A DNA stretch of 64,000 nucleotides, taken from the sequence record PZ386974.1, one strand, 5' to 3'. The stretch's first letter is position 1; each line of letters starts with the position of its first letter. Positions 1,424 through 5,104 of the stretch are shown one piece after another. The translations under genes and the position numbers were made by a program. The stretch comes from a phage. The notes below the pieces were generated by a model. It made no database searches and was not told where the DNA came from. It saw only the letters and a program-made list of their open reading frames with translations.

Positions 1424-1464
1424 TTTATTCTCCAGATGTTTAAGTTGTTTGTTGGTACAGGTCT

Positions 1465-1493
1465 ATAATAACATAACCTGTACCAAAGTAAAC
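1465..1493 (-). promoter_or_regulatory. sigma70-type early promoter (-35 GTTTAC, 17-bp spacer, -10 TATTAT)
   Basis: Read on minus strand: GTTTAC at 1493..1488, TATTAT at 1470..1465, followed by conserved AGACCT box; embedded in inverted repeat ggtacagg/cctgtacc. Confidence 0.5.
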
Positions 1494-1497
1494 TGTT

Positions 1498-1866
1498 TTA
1501 TGCAACTTTAATCCAATTGTCTAAATTTAAAACACCTTTGGCTTTCATTTTTTCGATCAGGTTATCTGCTGTAATGCGTCCATTTTGATACCATGTAACA
1601 TCTTCAGAGTAACCAGTTTCTTCGTCAACATATGTTTCTGAACGAATTTTACCGGTAATAATAGTTTTTAATTCGTATGTGTCACCTGTGAAAAAGTTTG
1701 CTAACACAATTTTCCAAGAGAAATCATCTGAAGGACCTTCAGGGGTCATACAACTTACGATCTCAAATTGCTCTTTGTATAACATCCACTGGAATTCTTT
1801 AATTTCGATAGCTTTATAACCATCGTGGTCTTTACATTTGATGTATGAGTTCAGATTGATTTTCAT
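1498..1866 (-). CDS. hypothetical protein (122 aa)
   Basis: ORF track; ATG start. Confidence 0.55.
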   Translation of the reverse strand: MKINLNSYIKCKDHDGYKAIEIKEFQWMLYKEQFEIVSCMTPEGPSDDFSWKIVLANFFTGDTYELKTIITGKIRSETYVDEETGYSEDVTWYQNGRITADNLIEKMKAKGVLNLDNWIKVA

Positions 1867-1908
1867 TTTGTTCTCCAGGTTGTTTTATTGATTAGGTGGT
1901 ACAAGTCT

Positions 1909-1937
1909 ATAGTAACACATCCTACAGGAGAGTAAAC
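1909..1937 (-). promoter_or_regulatory. sigma70-type early promoter (-35 GTTTAC, 17 bp, -10 TACTAT)
   Basis: Minus-strand GTTTAC 1937..1932 and TACTAT 1914..1909 upstream of ORF 1498..1866. Confidence 0.5.
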
Positions 1938-1973
1938 ATCTTTTTAAACTTTTTCTGCCCTAAACGCACAAAA

Positions 1974-1989
1974 GGGAGCCGAAGCTCCC
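1974..1989 (-). terminator. intrinsic terminator hairpin GGGAGC-CGAA-GCUCCC plus U-run
   Basis: 6-bp GC stem, UUCG loop on minus transcript, A4 on plus strand just left of stem (U-run on the transcript); 5 nt after stop of ORF 1995..2174. Confidence 0.6.
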
Positions 1990-1994
1990 TAAAA

Positions 1995-2174
1995 TTATGC
2001 AACAACCTTTCCAAAACGAGAAGCATCATCTCGAAGAACTGCACGTGCTCTGCGCATGATCTTCTCAACTGTTTGATTAATACGAGAGTTCGACCCACGC
2101 TTGTATCCAGCGCGTTTAGAGGTACCATCAACTTTCTTTTCAACTGCTTTCTTTGCTTTAGCTTGTTTTGCCAT
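1995..2174 (-). CDS. small basic protein (59 aa, Lys/Arg-rich)
   Basis: Own translation: MAKQAKAKKAVEKKVDGTSKRAGYKRGSNSRINQTVEKIMRRARAVLRDDASRFGKVVA; ATG start, terminator immediately downstream; below ORF-track size cutoff. Confidence 0.4.
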   Translation of the reverse strand: MAKQAKAKKAVEKKVDGTSKRAGYKRGSNSRINQTVEKIMRRARAVLRDDASRFGKVVA

Positions 2175-2469
2175 TATAAATTCTCTTTAAATGAAAATGC
2201 AGGACTTATTGACATTGCCTGCGCAAGTCCTCAAGGGGAACATAGGTTTTGGATATTTAACGACAGGATAACCATAAACCCGTCATCATACCACCCACGA
2301 CTTAGACAGATAACCTTTTTCTGACGCGTGATAGTATAAAATACATTCAAGAGGTACACCGTAAAACTGCCGGGGTCTTAAAACTATAATGATTCGCAAA
2401 TCATTAATCAGACAGTTCGACGGCTCCTCGATTTTCTAGCCGCACTTAAGGTAGCGAATCACCTAAAAC

Positions 2470-2718
2470 TTATTTAAGGGTGATAACAAAATGACGTACT
2501 GCTTTACGAGCTGCAGAAGCCAAAGGCTTAGCGTATTTCAGTTCATCTTTTGCTTCCAGTTCAGAAGCCAAAGCTGCCTGTACCGGGTTCAGATGTTTGA
2601 AATATCGCAGGATTTCAAGAGCTTCGGCTTCAACATCAATAGATGCGCCATAGTTTTCGTGGCCGTTATTCCATGCGTTTCGTTGCAGTTCAAGAGCGTG
2701 TTGTAATTGTTTAATCAT
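2470..2718 (-). CDS. rIII: rIII-like lysis-inhibition accessory protein (82 aa)
   Basis: 82-aa ORF beside gene 31 on the same strand; size and position match T4 rIII as recalled. Confidence 0.5.
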   Translation of the reverse strand: MIKQLQHALELQRNAWNNGHENYGASIDVEAEALEILRYFKHLNPVQAALASELEAKDELKYAKPLASAARKAVRHFVITLK

Positions 2719-2834
2719 TTTAAATTCTCAATTCGAGATAATATTTAGTAGCCACGTTCGTCTGAATTTCACTTCCTTTCGACAAGTCTCTCAGTTGTAG
2801 GCTACCGCTTAGAAGAGTGTTCTCTTCATATAGT

Positions 2835-2842
2835 TATTTATA
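2835..2842 (-). promoter_or_regulatory. possible late promoter (TATAAATA on minus strand)
   Basis: Exact TATAAATA octamer just 3' of gene 31 stop, 117 nt upstream of the rIII ATG. Confidence 0.3.
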
Positions 2843-3175
2843 TCACTTATAAAGACACGGAATAGCTTTATAGTGGCATGTTACGAATTTCTGTTTAATT
2901 TCTTTAGGATGTTTAAGTCCCAAAGCCACAAATGGATGTGGAACATTTCGAATTTGTCCAACTGGTAGTGGAGTCAAATCACCGACTTCAACAAAACCTT
3001 CAGGAACATCAGGACCTACAGAATGAACTACACATAGTTCAGGAACTTCACCTTGAACACGTTTACCAATCACAAGTCCTGATTCGGTAACTTCTTCATC
3101 ACCTGCTTGAGCGGGTTCAGAAACCAGAATGACATATTCACCAACAGCACGAATTGGGAGTTGTACTTCAGACAT
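2843..3175 (-). CDS. 31: co-chaperonin gp31 (GroES analogue)
   Basis: 110-aa [31 protein letters not shown]..., near-identical to T4 gp31 as recalled; ATG start. Confidence 0.9.
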
Positions 3176-3541: not shown

Positions 3542-4112
3542 AAAAGTTTCGGATTTGTTCCCAATTCAGAGAACGAAGATTATTACGAGAGTACTGAATT
3601 ACTTCAATACCGGCTTGTTTTAGAATTTCGGCCCAATTTTCAGGAGATCTGTCATATAATTCCGCGTATACAACCTTTTTAATACCTGACTGCGTAATAG
3701 CTTTAGTGCAATCAGGACACGGAGAAAGCGTAGTATATAACGTAGCACCTTCAATAGAATTACCTTTACGAGCTGCAAACAAAATTGCGTTCAGTTCCGC
3801 ATGGATTTCGTTATTAGCAGACCATGCACTATGAGCGGCCCGATGTTCTTTAGCCAAAACAAAATTATCCACCCGTCCAAATGCTGTAGTGCCTTCTTTA
3901 TGCCCAGCAACGATGACCGGGCTTGGTTTATTCTTCAACCAACCGTTTTCGGATGCATGTTCGCAACAGTTTGTACCACCTGAAGGAGAGCCATTATAAC
4001 CTGTAGAAATAATGCGTCCATCCTTTTCAATGACGGCACCAACTTTCCATGAACAACATTTTGATTCTTGAGAAATCAGATATGCAATCTGAAGGTATGT
4101 GCTAGCTTTCAT
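3531..4112 (-). CDS. cd: dCMP deaminase
   Basis: 193 aa; zinc-binding HAE and PCxxC motifs (HAELNAI...SPCPDC); size matches T4 Cd; ATG overlaps upstream stop (TAATG). Confidence 0.9.
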   Translation of the reverse strand: MKASTYLQIAYLISQESKCCSWKVGAVIEKDGRIISTGYNGSPSGGTNCCEHASENGWLKNKPSPVIVAGHKEGTTAFGRVDNFVLAKEHRAAHSAWSANNEIHAELNAILFAARKGNSIEGATLYTTLSPCPDCTKAITQSGIKKVVYAELYDRSPENWAEILKQAGIEVIQYSRNNLRSLNWEQIRNFCGE

Positions 4113-5104
4113 TATTGAACCTTATTAATATAAGTTAACAGCTCTTTAGTTTGTTCCCAACTGATGCACGCATCGGTAACGGAAACGCCATAGGACATAT
4201 TATCAGAAATTTTTTGATTTCCTTCATGTAGGAATGATTCTATCATAATTCCTTTGACCAAATCATTAGCTGCTAAATTTTTACCAATACCAATTTGATT
4301 GCTATAATGCCCATCAGCGTTTGCATGGCTACAGTCAACCATTACATAATGATTCAGACCTACTGCCCTTGCTTTGTTAGAAGCTTCTTGAATATCAGAA
4401 GAATGATAGTTCGGGCCGTTGGTCCCACCACGCAATACGATATGCGTATTCTGATTACCTTCAGCTTCAACAATGCCTACAGTACCATCGACGTCCATAC
4501 CCATATACCGATGAGGCCAGGCGGCACTATACATCGCGTCTGTAGCTACTTTAATAGAACCATTGGTTGCGTTCTTGAAGCCTACGCACATCGGTAGACC
4601 TGAAGCAATTTCACGATGTGTCTGACTTTCAGTCGTACGGGCGCCAATAGCAACCCATGAGAAAATACCAGAAAGATACTTAATCGTGAATGGGTCTAAT
4701 ACTTCAGTTGCTAATGGAAGTCCCATACGTAGAAGTTTACGACACAATGTTCGTGCAACTATAAGACCGTGGTTCATATCAAAACTTCCGTCAAGATATG
4801 GATCATTTACAAGACCTTTCCAACCTACGGTAGTTCGAGGCTTTTCAAAATAAACGCGCATCACTAACAGAACATTAGGAAGACGAGTTTGAAGTTCGGC
4901 CAGACGTTTGCCGTATTCAACAGCAGCAATAGGGTCATGAATTGAACAAGGACCTACAACAATAAGTTTGCGTGGGTCTTCACCGTTCATAATCGAATTA
5001 ACTTGTTCGCGATGAGAAGCCACTTGTGATGCGTAAGCTTCCGACAAAGGAATAATCTCAGCCAGTTCTTTTGGAGAAATAAGTTTTCCGACGACAGGTA
5101 ACAT
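4112..5104 (-). CDS. 3-deoxy-D-arabino-heptulosonate-7-phosphate (DAHP) synthase, AroG/F/H-like class I
   Basis: 330 aa; motifs VVGPCSIHD, FEKPRTTVGWKGL, IGARTTESQ, VMVDCSHAN collinear with E. coli AroG; ATG start. Confidence 0.85.
   Translation of the reverse strand: MLPVVGKLISPKELAEIIPLSEAYASQVASHREQVNSIMNGEDPRKLIVVGPCSIHDPIAAVEYGKRLAELQTRLPNVLLVMRVYFEKPRTTVGWKGLVNDPYLDGSFDMNHGLIVARTLCRKLLRMGLPLATEVLDPFTIKYLSGIFSWVAIGARTTESQTHREIASGLPMCVGFKNATNGSIKVATDAMYSAAWPHRYMGMDVDGTVGIVEAEGNQNTHIVLRGGTNGPNYHSSDIQEASNKARAVGLNHYVMVDCSHANADGHYSNQIGIGKNLAANDLVKGIMIESFLHEGNQKISDNMSYGVSVTDACISWEQTKELLTYINKVQ

Follow-up and report, generated by a model that had tools for sequence, protein, structure and literature searches.

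ToxI is a pseudoknot RNA that binds and silences ToxN, the endoribonuclease of plasmid-borne type III toxin-antitoxin (abortive infection) systems. The contest between ToxIN and T4-type phages is a leading arms-race model of toxin-antitoxin defence and phage counter-defence, and the accepted counter-measure of T-even phages is the protein TifA. The closest known counterparts of the element described here are the ToxI RNAs of ToxIN from P. atrosepticum plasmid pECA1039 and of E. coli ToxIN, complexes of which have been solved (PDB). The published H-type pseudoknot is held by stems S1 (AGGU/ACCU) and S2 (UYGC/GCRG) and has conserved residues G5 and A6 (PMC8860590). An RNA mimic of ToxI, pseudo-ToxI, has been described only in the Pectobacterium phage phiTE, an rV5/PVP-SE1-like myovirus (Blower et al. 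2012, PMC3475682). Pseudo-ToxI suppresses ToxN, and antitoxin mimicry has been proposed for it; wild-type phiTE, with 1.5 units, is still aborted, and escape took 4.5–5.5 units (PMC3475682). The anti-ToxIN factor known from T-even phages, TifA (T4 gp61.4), acts by trapping ToxN on 16S rRNA (PMC9391042, PMC10853763). T4, T2, and T6 are sensitive to plasmid-borne toxIN, and RB69 is less sensitive (PMC9391042). We found no report in the literature of a pseudo-ToxI in T-even phages.

The DNA analysed here is a stretch of 64,000 nt (the window) from a Mosigvirus (T4-like) genome. It is 98–99% identical to Mosigvirus genomes and agrees with them in the gene order cd-31.1-31-rIII-30.9-30.8. The genes lie on the minus strand, as do all features described below. 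The gene for the lysis-inhibition accessory protein, rIII, occupies 2470..2718 (an 82-aa ORF, annotated as rIII in near-identical Mosigvirus, T4, and RB69). The homologue of T4 gene 30.9, which encodes a 59-aa Lys/Arg-rich protein (MAKQAKAKKAVEKK...), occupies 1995..2174, and the two genes are separated by a leader of 295 nt (2175..2469). A consensus scan detects a sigma-70-like promoter on the rIII side (2766..2738) and no promoter inside the leader on the sense strand; reading by eye reveals no convincing T4 early, middle, or late promoter motif in the leader. The rIII-30.9 unit ends in an intrinsic terminator at 1968..1989 (GGGAGC-UUCG-GCUCCC-UUUUGU, a hairpin with a U-run), which is annotated (−16.3) in the near-identical phage G53 and has an equivalent hairpin plus U-run in T4. 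The small ORF does have a canonical terminator of its own, as had been claimed. We read the 295 nt, which have no promoter-like site inside and one terminator after 30.9, as a transcribed intercistronic leader, probably made up of RNA hairpin cassettes. The rIII gene of T4 has early, middle, and late promoters (PMC9409239). T4 rIII and 30.9 RNAs are classed as early. A tRNA/tmRNA scan returned none. The Lys/Arg-rich ORF, the terminator, the leader, and its stems all lie where the original prediction had placed them, on the minus strand.

The first cassette of the leader, module C, is a single ToxI-type (type III antitoxin) RNA unit of the pseudo-ToxI kind, which begins 5 nt past the rIII stop codon. 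It spans 2430..2468 with its leading UUUU (UUUU-AGGUGAUUCGCUACCUUAAGUGCGGCUAGAAAAUC); the ToxI unit proper is 2430..2464. When the leader is compared with 5,426 E. coli genomes by blastn, 54 records match, at 2–4 places per record, all at leader nucleotides 1–45, and 137 of the 141 places are on plasmids. The same picture emerges from PLSDB, where pECA1039, the original ToxIN plasmid of P. atrosepticum, is among the matches. On all four plasmids inspected, the matches are located immediately 5′ of a gene annotated as "type III toxin-antitoxin system ToxN/AbiQ family toxin". The unit shares the 35–36-nt sequence of ToxI, being identical at 33 of 35 nt to repeats on pU90-1 and on a Hafnia plasmid, and also matches repeats on pMB9_2, a Yersinia plasmid, and pECA1039. 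These plasmid counterparts are 35–37-nt tandem repeats 5′ of toxN in Escherichia, Hafnia, Yersinia, and Pectobacterium. An nhmmer search with a ToxI profile gives one match in the 64-kb window, at 2427..2467. The suggestion that the leader encodes a small RNA was partly right, in that its first 35–40 nt are homologous to the ToxI antitoxin small RNA.

The unit also has the features that define the ToxI fold. We took the pseudoknot from the published description (PMC8860590) and scored its pairing on sequences only, in 12 phage copies and 6 plasmid units. All eight S1 and S2 pairs form in module C. In the 18 sequences, standard pairs fill 94% of the S1/S2 cells, compared with 30–50% in slid controls. 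Compensatory changes comprise C-G/U-A and G-C/A-U switches in S2, plus one S1 pair. The columns of the conserved G5, A6, and G21/U22 (U:U:G triple) are invariant or nearly so, and the window copy has these residues. Its 3′ overhang, GCUAGAA, is that of canonical ToxI and is followed by the AAAU motif at which ToxN cleaves (AA^AU; GCUAGAAAAUC).

The differences from ToxI concern copy number, context, and the 5′ flank. The phage carries one unit, whereas ToxI genes have 3–6.5 in tandem, and no array of at least two units is present in the window. No cognate toxN follows the unit; the next gene is the 59-aa 30.9, and the neighbours are ordinary T4-type genes. The unit sits in an intercistronic region with neither a dedicated promoter nor a dedicated terminator. 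The 4 nt before AGGUG are UUUU instead of the canonical AUUU/AUUC, and the closest AAAU on the 5′ side is 9 nt away, within UUAAAUAAG at the stop codon of rIII. No canonical AA^AU is present at −4, so assembly of the closed 3:3 ToxIN ring may be poor. Module C, as we read it, is an orphan antitoxin-like element and not a toxin-antitoxin locus. With a single unit it does not qualify as a bona fide toxI gene, but it can be placed in the pseudo-ToxI class, because wild-type phiTE has 1.5 units.

We favour, with a probability of roughly 55%, a reading in which the leader is a row of hairpin cassettes and the first of them, a complete ToxI unit, is a putative orphan antitoxin decoy against ToxN. 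Upon infection by a T4-type phage, host transcription would be shut off, the unstable host ToxI would decay, and the released ToxN would cleave phage mRNAs. The ToxI unit in an abundant phage mRNA would then be excised, or at least bound, by ToxN at flanking A-rich AA^AU sites and would hold ToxN inhibited. The unit is in sense orientation within the rIII-30.9 transcription unit; we infer that it is expressed and processed, binds ToxN, and protects the phage. The phiTE element provides the precedent, being likewise phage-borne, orphan, intergenic, and of low copy number in the wild type. The phage here belongs to the T4-like Straboviridae, however, and its one unit is nearer to genuine ToxI than the 1.5 units of phiTE. 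For phiTE, expanded arrays are active and escape variants are known, whereas the candidate activity of the present unit is read from its sequence. TifA occurs in the same phage group and its target, ToxN, is the presumed target of the unit, but it is a protein, whereas the unit would be an RNA mimic. The tifA gene was not found in the 64-kb window.

Further observations temper the decoy reading. The window has a single unit, whereas phiTE needed 4.5–5.5 units to escape. In addition, RB69 is less sensitive to toxIN and lacks the unit, and T4 is sensitive and has a degenerate copy, indicating that the unit is not necessary for resistance, nor sufficient in its T4 form. Alternatively, the unit could be an inert relic, left as a single copy in a tolerant intergenic region by past recombination with a toxIN plasmid, once or more, and decaying slowly without effect on ToxN. 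Besides the single copy and the expanded array required for escape of phiTE (PMC3475682), the dependence of T-even phages on the protein TifA against ToxIN (PMC9391042, PMC10853763) would agree with a relic, as would the fate of the unit in relatives. In T4, only two of the four S1 pairs survive and loop 2 is shortened, and since the T4 copy lacks any plasmid relative, the idea that it mimics another ToxI cluster was rejected. RB69 differs by an indel of 33 nt that takes out precisely the ToxI unit; the unit is also gone from many other relatives, so that presence and absence are polymorphic among close relatives.

The wider distribution is harder to reconcile with decay. No position that defines the ToxI fold is damaged in the window copy, which is 100% identical in the five Mosigvirus records listed at full identity and is matched at ≥99% by 37 phage records; among the Mosigvirus and Klebsiella T4-like phages sampled, most have an intact unit. 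Every phage copy is sense-oriented in an operon presumed to be expressed. Moreover, ToxI-like units are present in 292 phage records, unrelated families among them: a Kuravirus has one unit with a terminator, and a T5-like Sugarlandvirus has two units in tandem. Two such unrelated families show canonical flanks or a tandem arrangement, and repeated neutral relics of this kind are not expected. We regard an inert relic as rather unlikely. The S2 compensatory variants of the phage copies mirror two plasmid ToxI types, and may have arisen by separate captures instead of by selection within phages.

If the decoy reading holds, an unannotated ToxI-like RNA unit in many sequenced T-even-type genomes would add a layer of RNA mimicry to the ToxIN model and might account for part of the variation in ToxIN sensitivity between close relatives. 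The natural alleles, intact, decayed (T4), and deleted (RB69), permit direct tests. The units in unrelated coliphage and Klebsiella phage families suggest that orphan antitoxin RNAs may be a common, unrecorded anti-defence device.

The leader as a whole had been described as structured and as lacking a credible ORF. A conserved ORF was looked for, and none was found: ORFs of 37 and 42 aa with GTG/TTG starts are broken by indels in T4 and RB69, several relatives have no leader ORF of at least 25 aa, and no leader ORF is conserved among relatives, which rules out hidden coding. In minimum free energy, the whole leader is close to chance (z = −1.07; 18 of 100 shuffles fold equally well). Structure predicted by energy alone being no better than chance, the evidence for a structured leader is comparative, and it upholds the original prediction: compensatory base changes occur in modules A, X, and C. 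The leader contains several covariation-supported RNA structures that are missing from Rfam. An Rfam 15 scan of the window at gathering scores gave no matches, scans at E ≤10 over 1850..2900 and 2400..2490 gave no credible match, and E-value scans of eight related loci gave nothing relevant. The canonical ToxI on pMB9_2, used as a control, is likewise unrecognised, indicating that the lack of an Rfam match says little on antitoxin RNAs.

The fold energy could also be taken to mean that the region is hyperplastic and the leader a filler without function, composed of recombination scars, decayed gene fragments, and fortuitous hairpins; the heavy indel polymorphism and the short spurious ORFs annotated in some genomes would fit. 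This account was already disfavoured because of the covariation in modules A, X, and C, and the absence of a conserved leader ORF also stands against it. Moreover, module A is 93% identical to its Gelderlandvirus copy, while rIII is only 69% identical there, and the figure for third positions of synonymous codons is 55%. We consider filler very improbable.

Instead, the leader appears to be a mosaic of independent conserved RNA hairpin cassettes, whose presence and order vary among Tevenvirinae. The rIII-30.9 region of T4 resembles that of the window in its orthologous protein, synteny, modules X, A, D1, and H2, and terminator, but its ToxI copy is decayed where the window copy is intact. Next to module C lies module X (2351..2429), a long interrupted hairpin (GAGGAGCCGUC...GACGGUGUACCUC) with GGAG at its start and an inner AAUGAUU-UGCG-AAUCAUU hairpin. 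RNAalifold on 12 variants finds 24 pairs in it, four of them with compensatory changes. Its basal stem is kept in deletion variants, and the module X hairpin is also the centroid structure in the whole-leader fold. Module E (2295..2331), recognised in an alignment of 32 intergenic regions, is the hairpin UCACG-CG-UCAGA-AAAAGGUUA-UCUGU-CUAAGU-CGUGG. Its inner stem, as read from the alignment, is CAGA/UCUG here and CAGC/GCUG in two relatives (loci L011 and L032). T4 has nothing in the slot of module E, and other phages carry a structured RNA of 145 nt (module B) there.

Module A (2241..2292) is supported by covariation. It consists of a hairpin, whose stem pairs 2279..2284 with 2262..2267, and a tail (GUUAAAUAUCCAAAACC); both the tail and the 11-nt loop of the hairpin (GUUUAUGGUUAU) are conserved. 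Of the 32 distinct rIII-30.9 intergenic regions in the first alignment, 31 contain the module, the exception being L028. Two stem pairs switch among 19 sequences (A-U/U-A and C-G/G-C/U-A) with no breaks, giving a covariation score of 0.454 against 0.16 in shuffles and at most 0.12 in slid controls. A covariance model of module A (R1) has a single match of 69 bits in the 64-kb window and matches 20 further loci; with one match per 64 kb, module A is not a dispersed repeat. A loop-tail pseudoknot was checked by eye and receives no support from covariation. A degenerate module-A pattern run against 185,579 species genomes gave 30 single matches, compared with about 17 expected by chance; there were no arrays and no matches in enteric bacteria, and many matches formed a cluster in methanotroph genomes, the others being scattered as chance would give. 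One pattern scan of viral contigs gave a chance match within a jumbo-phage gene.

The stretch 2199..2238 holds module D1 (CCCC-UUGA-GG), which is weak here, and module H2 (GCAGG-14 nt-CCUGC), with AUUUUCAUUU after them. It also holds the two stems named in the original prediction. The gcagg/cctgc stem, which is H2 (within 2199..2222), is paired in all seven sequences and has one compensatory pair. The aggactt/aagtcct stem (7 bp; 2225..2231 with 2201..2207) is 92% paired in the same seven; none of its changes is compensatory, and the two most distant relatives disrupt it. Both stems are present as described, but the support for them is weaker than for any other part of the case. What had been overlooked is the ToxI-like unit, together with the better-supported hairpins farther upstream.

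For modules X, E, A, D1, and H2, blastn finds no relatives among PLSDB plasmids or complete E. coli genomes. The possibility that A, X, E, D, or modules B and F of relatives mimic plasmid or chromosomal repeat RNAs was rejected, as blastn matched the ToxI unit only. Nothing in these sequences appears to link X, E, A, D1, and H2 to ToxIN, and the most economical reading is that they serve mRNA stabilisation or processing, or control 30.9 translation. More speculatively, and in our view improbably, the rIII-30.9 leader could be a collecting site for exchangeable RNA decoy cassettes, in which A, E/H2, and X (in relatives, the multi-helix B, and F) would mimic or sponge other host targets and the array would be shuffled as hosts change. 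The ToxI unit would then simply be the cassette whose bacterial original is known, and the other targets would be RNA-controlled host defences or host RNA-binding proteins.

Control of 30.9 could extend to the entire leader. It might primarily be a cis-acting 5′ UTR setting 30.9 translation or mRNA stability, with an incidental ToxI-like piece and perhaps with feedback by the 30.9 protein through binding to the hairpins, in the manner of ribosomal proteins acting on their own leaders; the protein is very basic. A long gap (120–416 nt) is present in every sampled Tevenvirinae locus with 30.9 downstream of rIII, and in Acinetobacter phages that have rIII and lack 30.9 the gap is short or absent. 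The leader modules persist in Yersinia phage TG1, where the first ~16 codons of 30.9 are fused to an unrelated protein, as if leader and start region travelled together. In most relatives, CUCC...GGAAG anti-SD/SD pairing lies directly before the AUG. In the window, by contrast, the translation initiation region (AAAGAGAAUUUAUA-AUG; 2172..2188), read from the sequence, is A/U-rich with a weak GAG Shine-Dalgarno and no visible sequestration. Cassette order and content differ freely among phages, which is unusual for a single folded regulatory leader, distant 30.9-like genes are preceded by short plain leaders and a promoter of their own, and no Rfam leader or riboswitch matches. A primarily regulatory leader seems to us rather unlikely.

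The downstream ORF is, as had been proposed, a genuine gene for a small basic protein, with homologues in ~1000 phage records. From its sequence and its position directly downstream of rIII within the 31-rIII-30.9-30.8 cluster, we assign the 59-aa protein to the T4 gp30.9 family (phrog_1427). It matches phrog_1427 at E 2.4e-31, is 96% identical to T4 gp30.9 over residues 1–56, and has the invariant SKRAxYKRxSNxR motif and the C-terminal RARAVLR helix. The MAKQ start is kept in all relatives; in-frame ATGs further upstream are not conserved. The protein is not a relative of TifA (hhalign probability 0.05%). It has no relative in Pfam or, by sequence and by profile, in the PDB, and together with AlphaFold and a profile search of 1.84 billion proteins these comparisons revealed no family members beyond small basic proteins of T4-like phages. 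The proposed nucleic-acid- or ribosome-binding role is a guess. The profile search recovered only 18 clusters; the 12 more distant ones inspected are small basic proteins, except for one spurious repeat protein. The AlphaFold model, with a pLDDT of 68, has a single long C-terminal helix preceded by a low-confidence basic N-terminus.

By its sequence, the window belongs to a T4-like Mosigvirus. Phages vB_EQ1, a20, moskry, and mar005P1 match a 1.1-kb query around the leader at 98-99% identity, and cd, 31.1, 31, rIII, 30.9, 30.8, and 30.7 are annotated in this order in those Mosigvirus genomes, T4, and RB69. The 59-aa ORF, terminator, leader, and stems of the original prediction are all found where it had placed them. 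The ORF (1995..2174, minus strand, as are the other features of the unit) is the orthologue of T4 gene 30.9, and the leader is the 295-nt intergenic region (2175..2469) between it and rIII (2470..2718; 82-aa ORF). The terminator GGGAGC-UUCG-GCUCCC-UUUUGU (1968..1989), annotated as such in one deposited genome, lies 3' of 30.9. In a consensus scan, rIII is preceded by a sigma-70-like promoter (2766..2738), but the sense strand of the leader has none. Given this promoter, its lack of a counterpart inside the leader, and the terminator after 30.9, rIII and 30.9 are most simply a single transcription unit. Early, middle, and late promoters have been reported for T4 rIII (PMC9409239). In a T4 transcriptome and proteome study, 30.9 RNA is early and 30.9 protein is given no infection phase.

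The first hairpin cassette of the leader, module C (2464..2430, in the sense of the rIII-30.9 transcript; AGGTGATTCGCTACCTTAAGTGCGGCTAGAAAATC), is in all likelihood a unit of ToxI, the RNA antitoxin of the ToxN endoribonuclease in the type III toxin-antitoxin system ToxIN. When the leader is compared with all complete E. coli genomes by sensitive blastn, matches are found solely for its first 45 nt. They fall in 54 records, at two to four places per record, and 137 of the 141 places are on plasmids. PLSDB gives the same pattern on plasmids of Escherichia, Salmonella, Klebsiella, Yersinia, Hafnia, and Pectobacterium, including pECA1039, the plasmid of the ToxIN discovery. On all four plasmids inspected, the matches are 35-37-nt tandem repeats directly upstream of a terminator and a toxin gene, the latter annotated 'type III toxin-antitoxin system ToxN/AbiQ family toxin'. 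The window unit is identical at 33 of 35 nt to each plasmid repeat type, AGGTGATTTGCTACCTT(T)AAGTGCAGCTAGAAATTT (pMB9_2, Yersinia plasmid, pECA1039) and AGGTGATTCGCTACCTT(T)AAGTGCGGGACGAAAATC(C/T) (pU90-1, Hafnia plasmid).

The ToxI fold is a pseudoknot with stems S1 (AGGU/ACCU) and S2 (UYGC/GCRG) (PMC8860590). In the window unit, all eight stem pairs form, and the conserved G5, A6, and GU of the triple are present. The 3' overhang GCUAGAA is that of canonical ToxI and is followed by AAAU, matching the AA^AU cleavage motif of ToxN. Across 12 phage copies and six plasmid units, the pseudoknot positions form standard pairs in 94% of cells, compared with 30-50% when partners are slid by one to three columns, and S2 shows double changes (C-G/U-A and G-C/A-U). 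Rfam finds no match for the window unit and misses the genuine ToxI array of pMB9_2 too. We put the probability that module C is homologous to ToxI at about 0.9. The earlier suggestion that the leader may hold a small RNA can thus be narrowed to its first cassette and to an antitoxin-like RNA.

Compared with a toxI gene or a toxin-antitoxin locus, the window element is a single unit (one profile match in the window) without toxN, and its 5' side, compared with canonical ToxI, has no cleavage site at the canonical distance; as such, it falls outside the definition. It fits a pseudo-ToxI, an orphan antitoxin-like sequence on a phage. One case of this class has been described, Pectobacterium phage phiTE, whose wild type has 1.5 units and does not escape abortive infection by ToxIN; in escape mutants the array has grown to 4.5-5.5 units or toxI has been captured, and the expanded RNA suppresses ToxN (PMC3475682). 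A study of T4-family Serratia phages names phiTE as the sole case with an understood escape mechanism (PMC5449768). The papers on T4 and ToxIN identified the protein TifA and mention no ToxI-like sequence (PMC9391042, PMC10853763), and we found no earlier report of such a sequence in T-even phages in the open-access papers searched. This puts a putative pseudo-ToxI among phages that rank with the most intensively studied, and its naturally occurring alleles (intact, decayed, and deleted) allow direct tests.

ToxIN fires because ToxI is unstable and decays once the phage shuts off host transcription (summarised in PMC10853763). If carried in a phage message that is transcribed abundantly, a ToxI unit would replenish the antitoxin exactly during host shut-off, and ToxN itself could cut the phage unit at flanking A-rich sites and remain bound. 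We rate a real advantage for the window phage on toxIN hosts at slightly under an even chance, lower than homology, because one unit is possibly too few, because the 5' overhang is non-canonical, and because of the sensitivity pattern of T-even phages. T2, T4, and T6 are sensitive to toxIN and RB69 is least sensitive (PMC9391042); the former three have decayed copies and RB69 has none. Therefore, TifA, not the ToxI unit, dominates in these four phages. The main rival explanation is that the unit of the window phage is a relic.

In phage comparisons, the ToxI unit behaves like a cassette. The close relative RB69 is without exactly this unit, a 33-nt difference directly after the rIII stop codon. 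The copy in T4 and its close relatives has lost two of the four S1 pairs, has a shortened loop 2, and has no plasmid relative. Intact copies are present in mar005P1-like Mosigvirus, Yersinia phage TG1, and Klebsiella T4-like phages (163 of 292 records). A ToxI-like unit occurs in 292 phage records, and a two-unit query is covered by 24. In Escherichia Kuravirus vB-EcoP-XT18 (L074 ~701-740), one unit lies between the terminase and portal genes; its 5' flank, GAA^AUUC, is fully canonical, and it is accompanied by a terminator of its own. In Klebsiella T5-like Sugarlandvirus PWKp9S (L073 ~701-770), two tandem units lie within a tRNA cluster. This independent occurrence in several phage families, some unrelated to T4, argues that ToxI-like units are useful rather than accidental. 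In Erwinia phage IT22, a ToxI-like match (H317) lies beneath a feature annotated tRNA-Ser.

The leader as a whole has no conserved ORF. Indels interrupt its two short GTG/TTG ORFs in T4 and RB69, and in several relatives the leader contains no ORF of at least 25 aa, bearing out the original prediction on this point. The folding energy of the whole leader is indistinguishable from that of shuffled sequence (z = -1.07); therefore, claims of structure must rest on comparison with relatives, here 60-odd loci from phage records, IMG/VR contigs, and metagenome contigs. In every sampled Tevenvirinae locus having both genes, 30.9 is downstream of rIII, separated from it by 120-416 nt. An alignment of 32 distinct rIII-30.9 gaps contains short, highly conserved blocks, not one conserved sequence, and their presence and order vary among phages: C, X, E, A, D1, H2 in the window; the same without E in T4; X, E, A, D1, H2 without C in RB69; D1-A-C-H2 in TG1; and F-A-C-B-D1-H2 in Klebsiella-type phages.

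Several of these blocks are predicted RNA structures that are not in Rfam. Module A (2241..2292, minus strand), a hairpin whose 11-nt loop and tail are both conserved, is present in 31 of the 32 gaps (the exception is L028). Two stem pairs switch (A-U/U-A and C-G/G-C/U-A) and are never unpaired in 19 sequences, and the covariation score of 0.454 exceeds those of column shuffles (0.16) and slid partners (0.12 or less). Its covariance model scores 69 bits in the window and finds the element in 20 further loci; the absence of a second match in the 64-kb window rules out a dispersed repeat. Between the window phage and a Gelderlandvirus, module A is 93% identical, compared with just 69% for rIII (55% at third positions of synonymous codons). 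Module X (2351..2429, minus strand) is a long interrupted hairpin with 24 pairs predicted by RNAalifold, four of them with compensatory changes, and a basal stem kept in natural deletion variants. Neither plasmids nor E. coli genomes contain relatives of modules X, E, A, D1, or H2, and a search for bacterial arrays of module A found none.

The two alternative stems originally proposed are both present in the D1/H2 region. The stem gcagg/cctgc (within 2199..2222) is paired in all seven sequences of this architecture, with one compensatory pair, and in the two most distant members it reaches 7 bp; aggactt/aagtcct (2225..2231 with 2201..2207) is 92% paired, with no compensatory change and with mismatches in those same two members. 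The former is slightly preferred, a choice that seven sequences leave undecided.

In many other T4-like phages, the slot of module E is filled by module B, a multi-helix RNA of ~145 nt in the rIII-30.9 gap (L009 ~737-880, L016 ~1247-1390, L059 ~625-770; also L017, L018, L020, L021, L023, L025-L028, L030, L033, and L035). The structure predicted by RNAalifold has 43 pairs, of which 20 show compensatory changes, and long single-stranded stretches (GGCAAGUGCAUG, GCUAACGGUGUGCAACAGAU) are invariant. Module B matches nothing in Rfam at E <=1, has no blastn relative among plasmids or in E. coli genomes, and is a candidate new structured RNA class.

Three observations tie the leader to the downstream 30.9, not to rIII. 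Acinetobacter phages with rIII and without 30.9 have a short gap or none. In Yersinia phage vB_YenM_TG1 (L008 1599..2225), the gene after rIII begins like 30.9 for ~16 codons (MKLSKAKAKTAVKETV) and then becomes an unrelated ~208-aa protein, and cassettes D1, A, ToxI-like C, and H2 are retained upstream, which looks like recombination sparing the leader and start region. In most relatives in the 32-gap alignment, CUCC pairs with the GGAAG Shine-Dalgarno sequence. A cis-regulatory or mRNA-stabilising role for X, E, A, D1, and H2 is plausible.

Judged by conservation, the 59-aa ORF is a real gene. It is encoded by ~1000 phage records, belongs to phrog_1427 (a family with no annotated function), and is limited to T4-like phages. 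S19-K-R-A, Y24-K, S28-N, and R42-A are among the residues invariant in 28 diverse members. In the predicted fold, the basic N-terminus is of low confidence and a single C-terminal helix is confident, and the protein has no similarity to Pfam, PDB, or TifA. Distant 30.9-like proteins (44-55% identity, motif TSKRAGYKRKxNxRV) are encoded away from rIII on metagenome contigs (L061, L063, L064, L062), with a sigma-70-type promoter of their own and a leader that is short and unstructured; therefore, the protein family is wider than the structured leader. In T4 (L004 1709..1751), an ATG lies upstream in frame, and older annotation stretched 30.9 to 72 or 97 aa ('11.1 kDa protein in Gp30-rIII intergenic region'). 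A 1-nt difference from T4 puts this ATG out of frame in the window (2175..2216), which favours the short start at MAKQ and accounts for the misleading product name since copied into some genomes.

Upstream of the homologues of 30.7 and 30.8, the short gaps (~1440..1500 and ~1885..1930, minus strand) share the motif GTTA(T/C)TATAGAC(C/T)TGTACCA, preceded by a GTTTAC-like -35 element, with a terminator before each. They resemble the 'PeSL' cassettes (terminator plus early promoter) of T4-type phages (PMC2839356, PMC4122927). On the opposite strand, TATAAATT (2167..2174, plus strand) overlaps the 30.9 start codon and is one base from the T4 late-promoter consensus TATAAATA; this candidate late promoter would drive antisense transcription through the leader. 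Finally, a 330-aa ORF (4112..5104, minus strand), annotated in close relatives as phospho-2-dehydro-3-deoxyheptonate aldolase (DAHP synthase), places an enzyme of the aromatic-amino-acid pathway next to dCMP deaminase in a T4-like phage.
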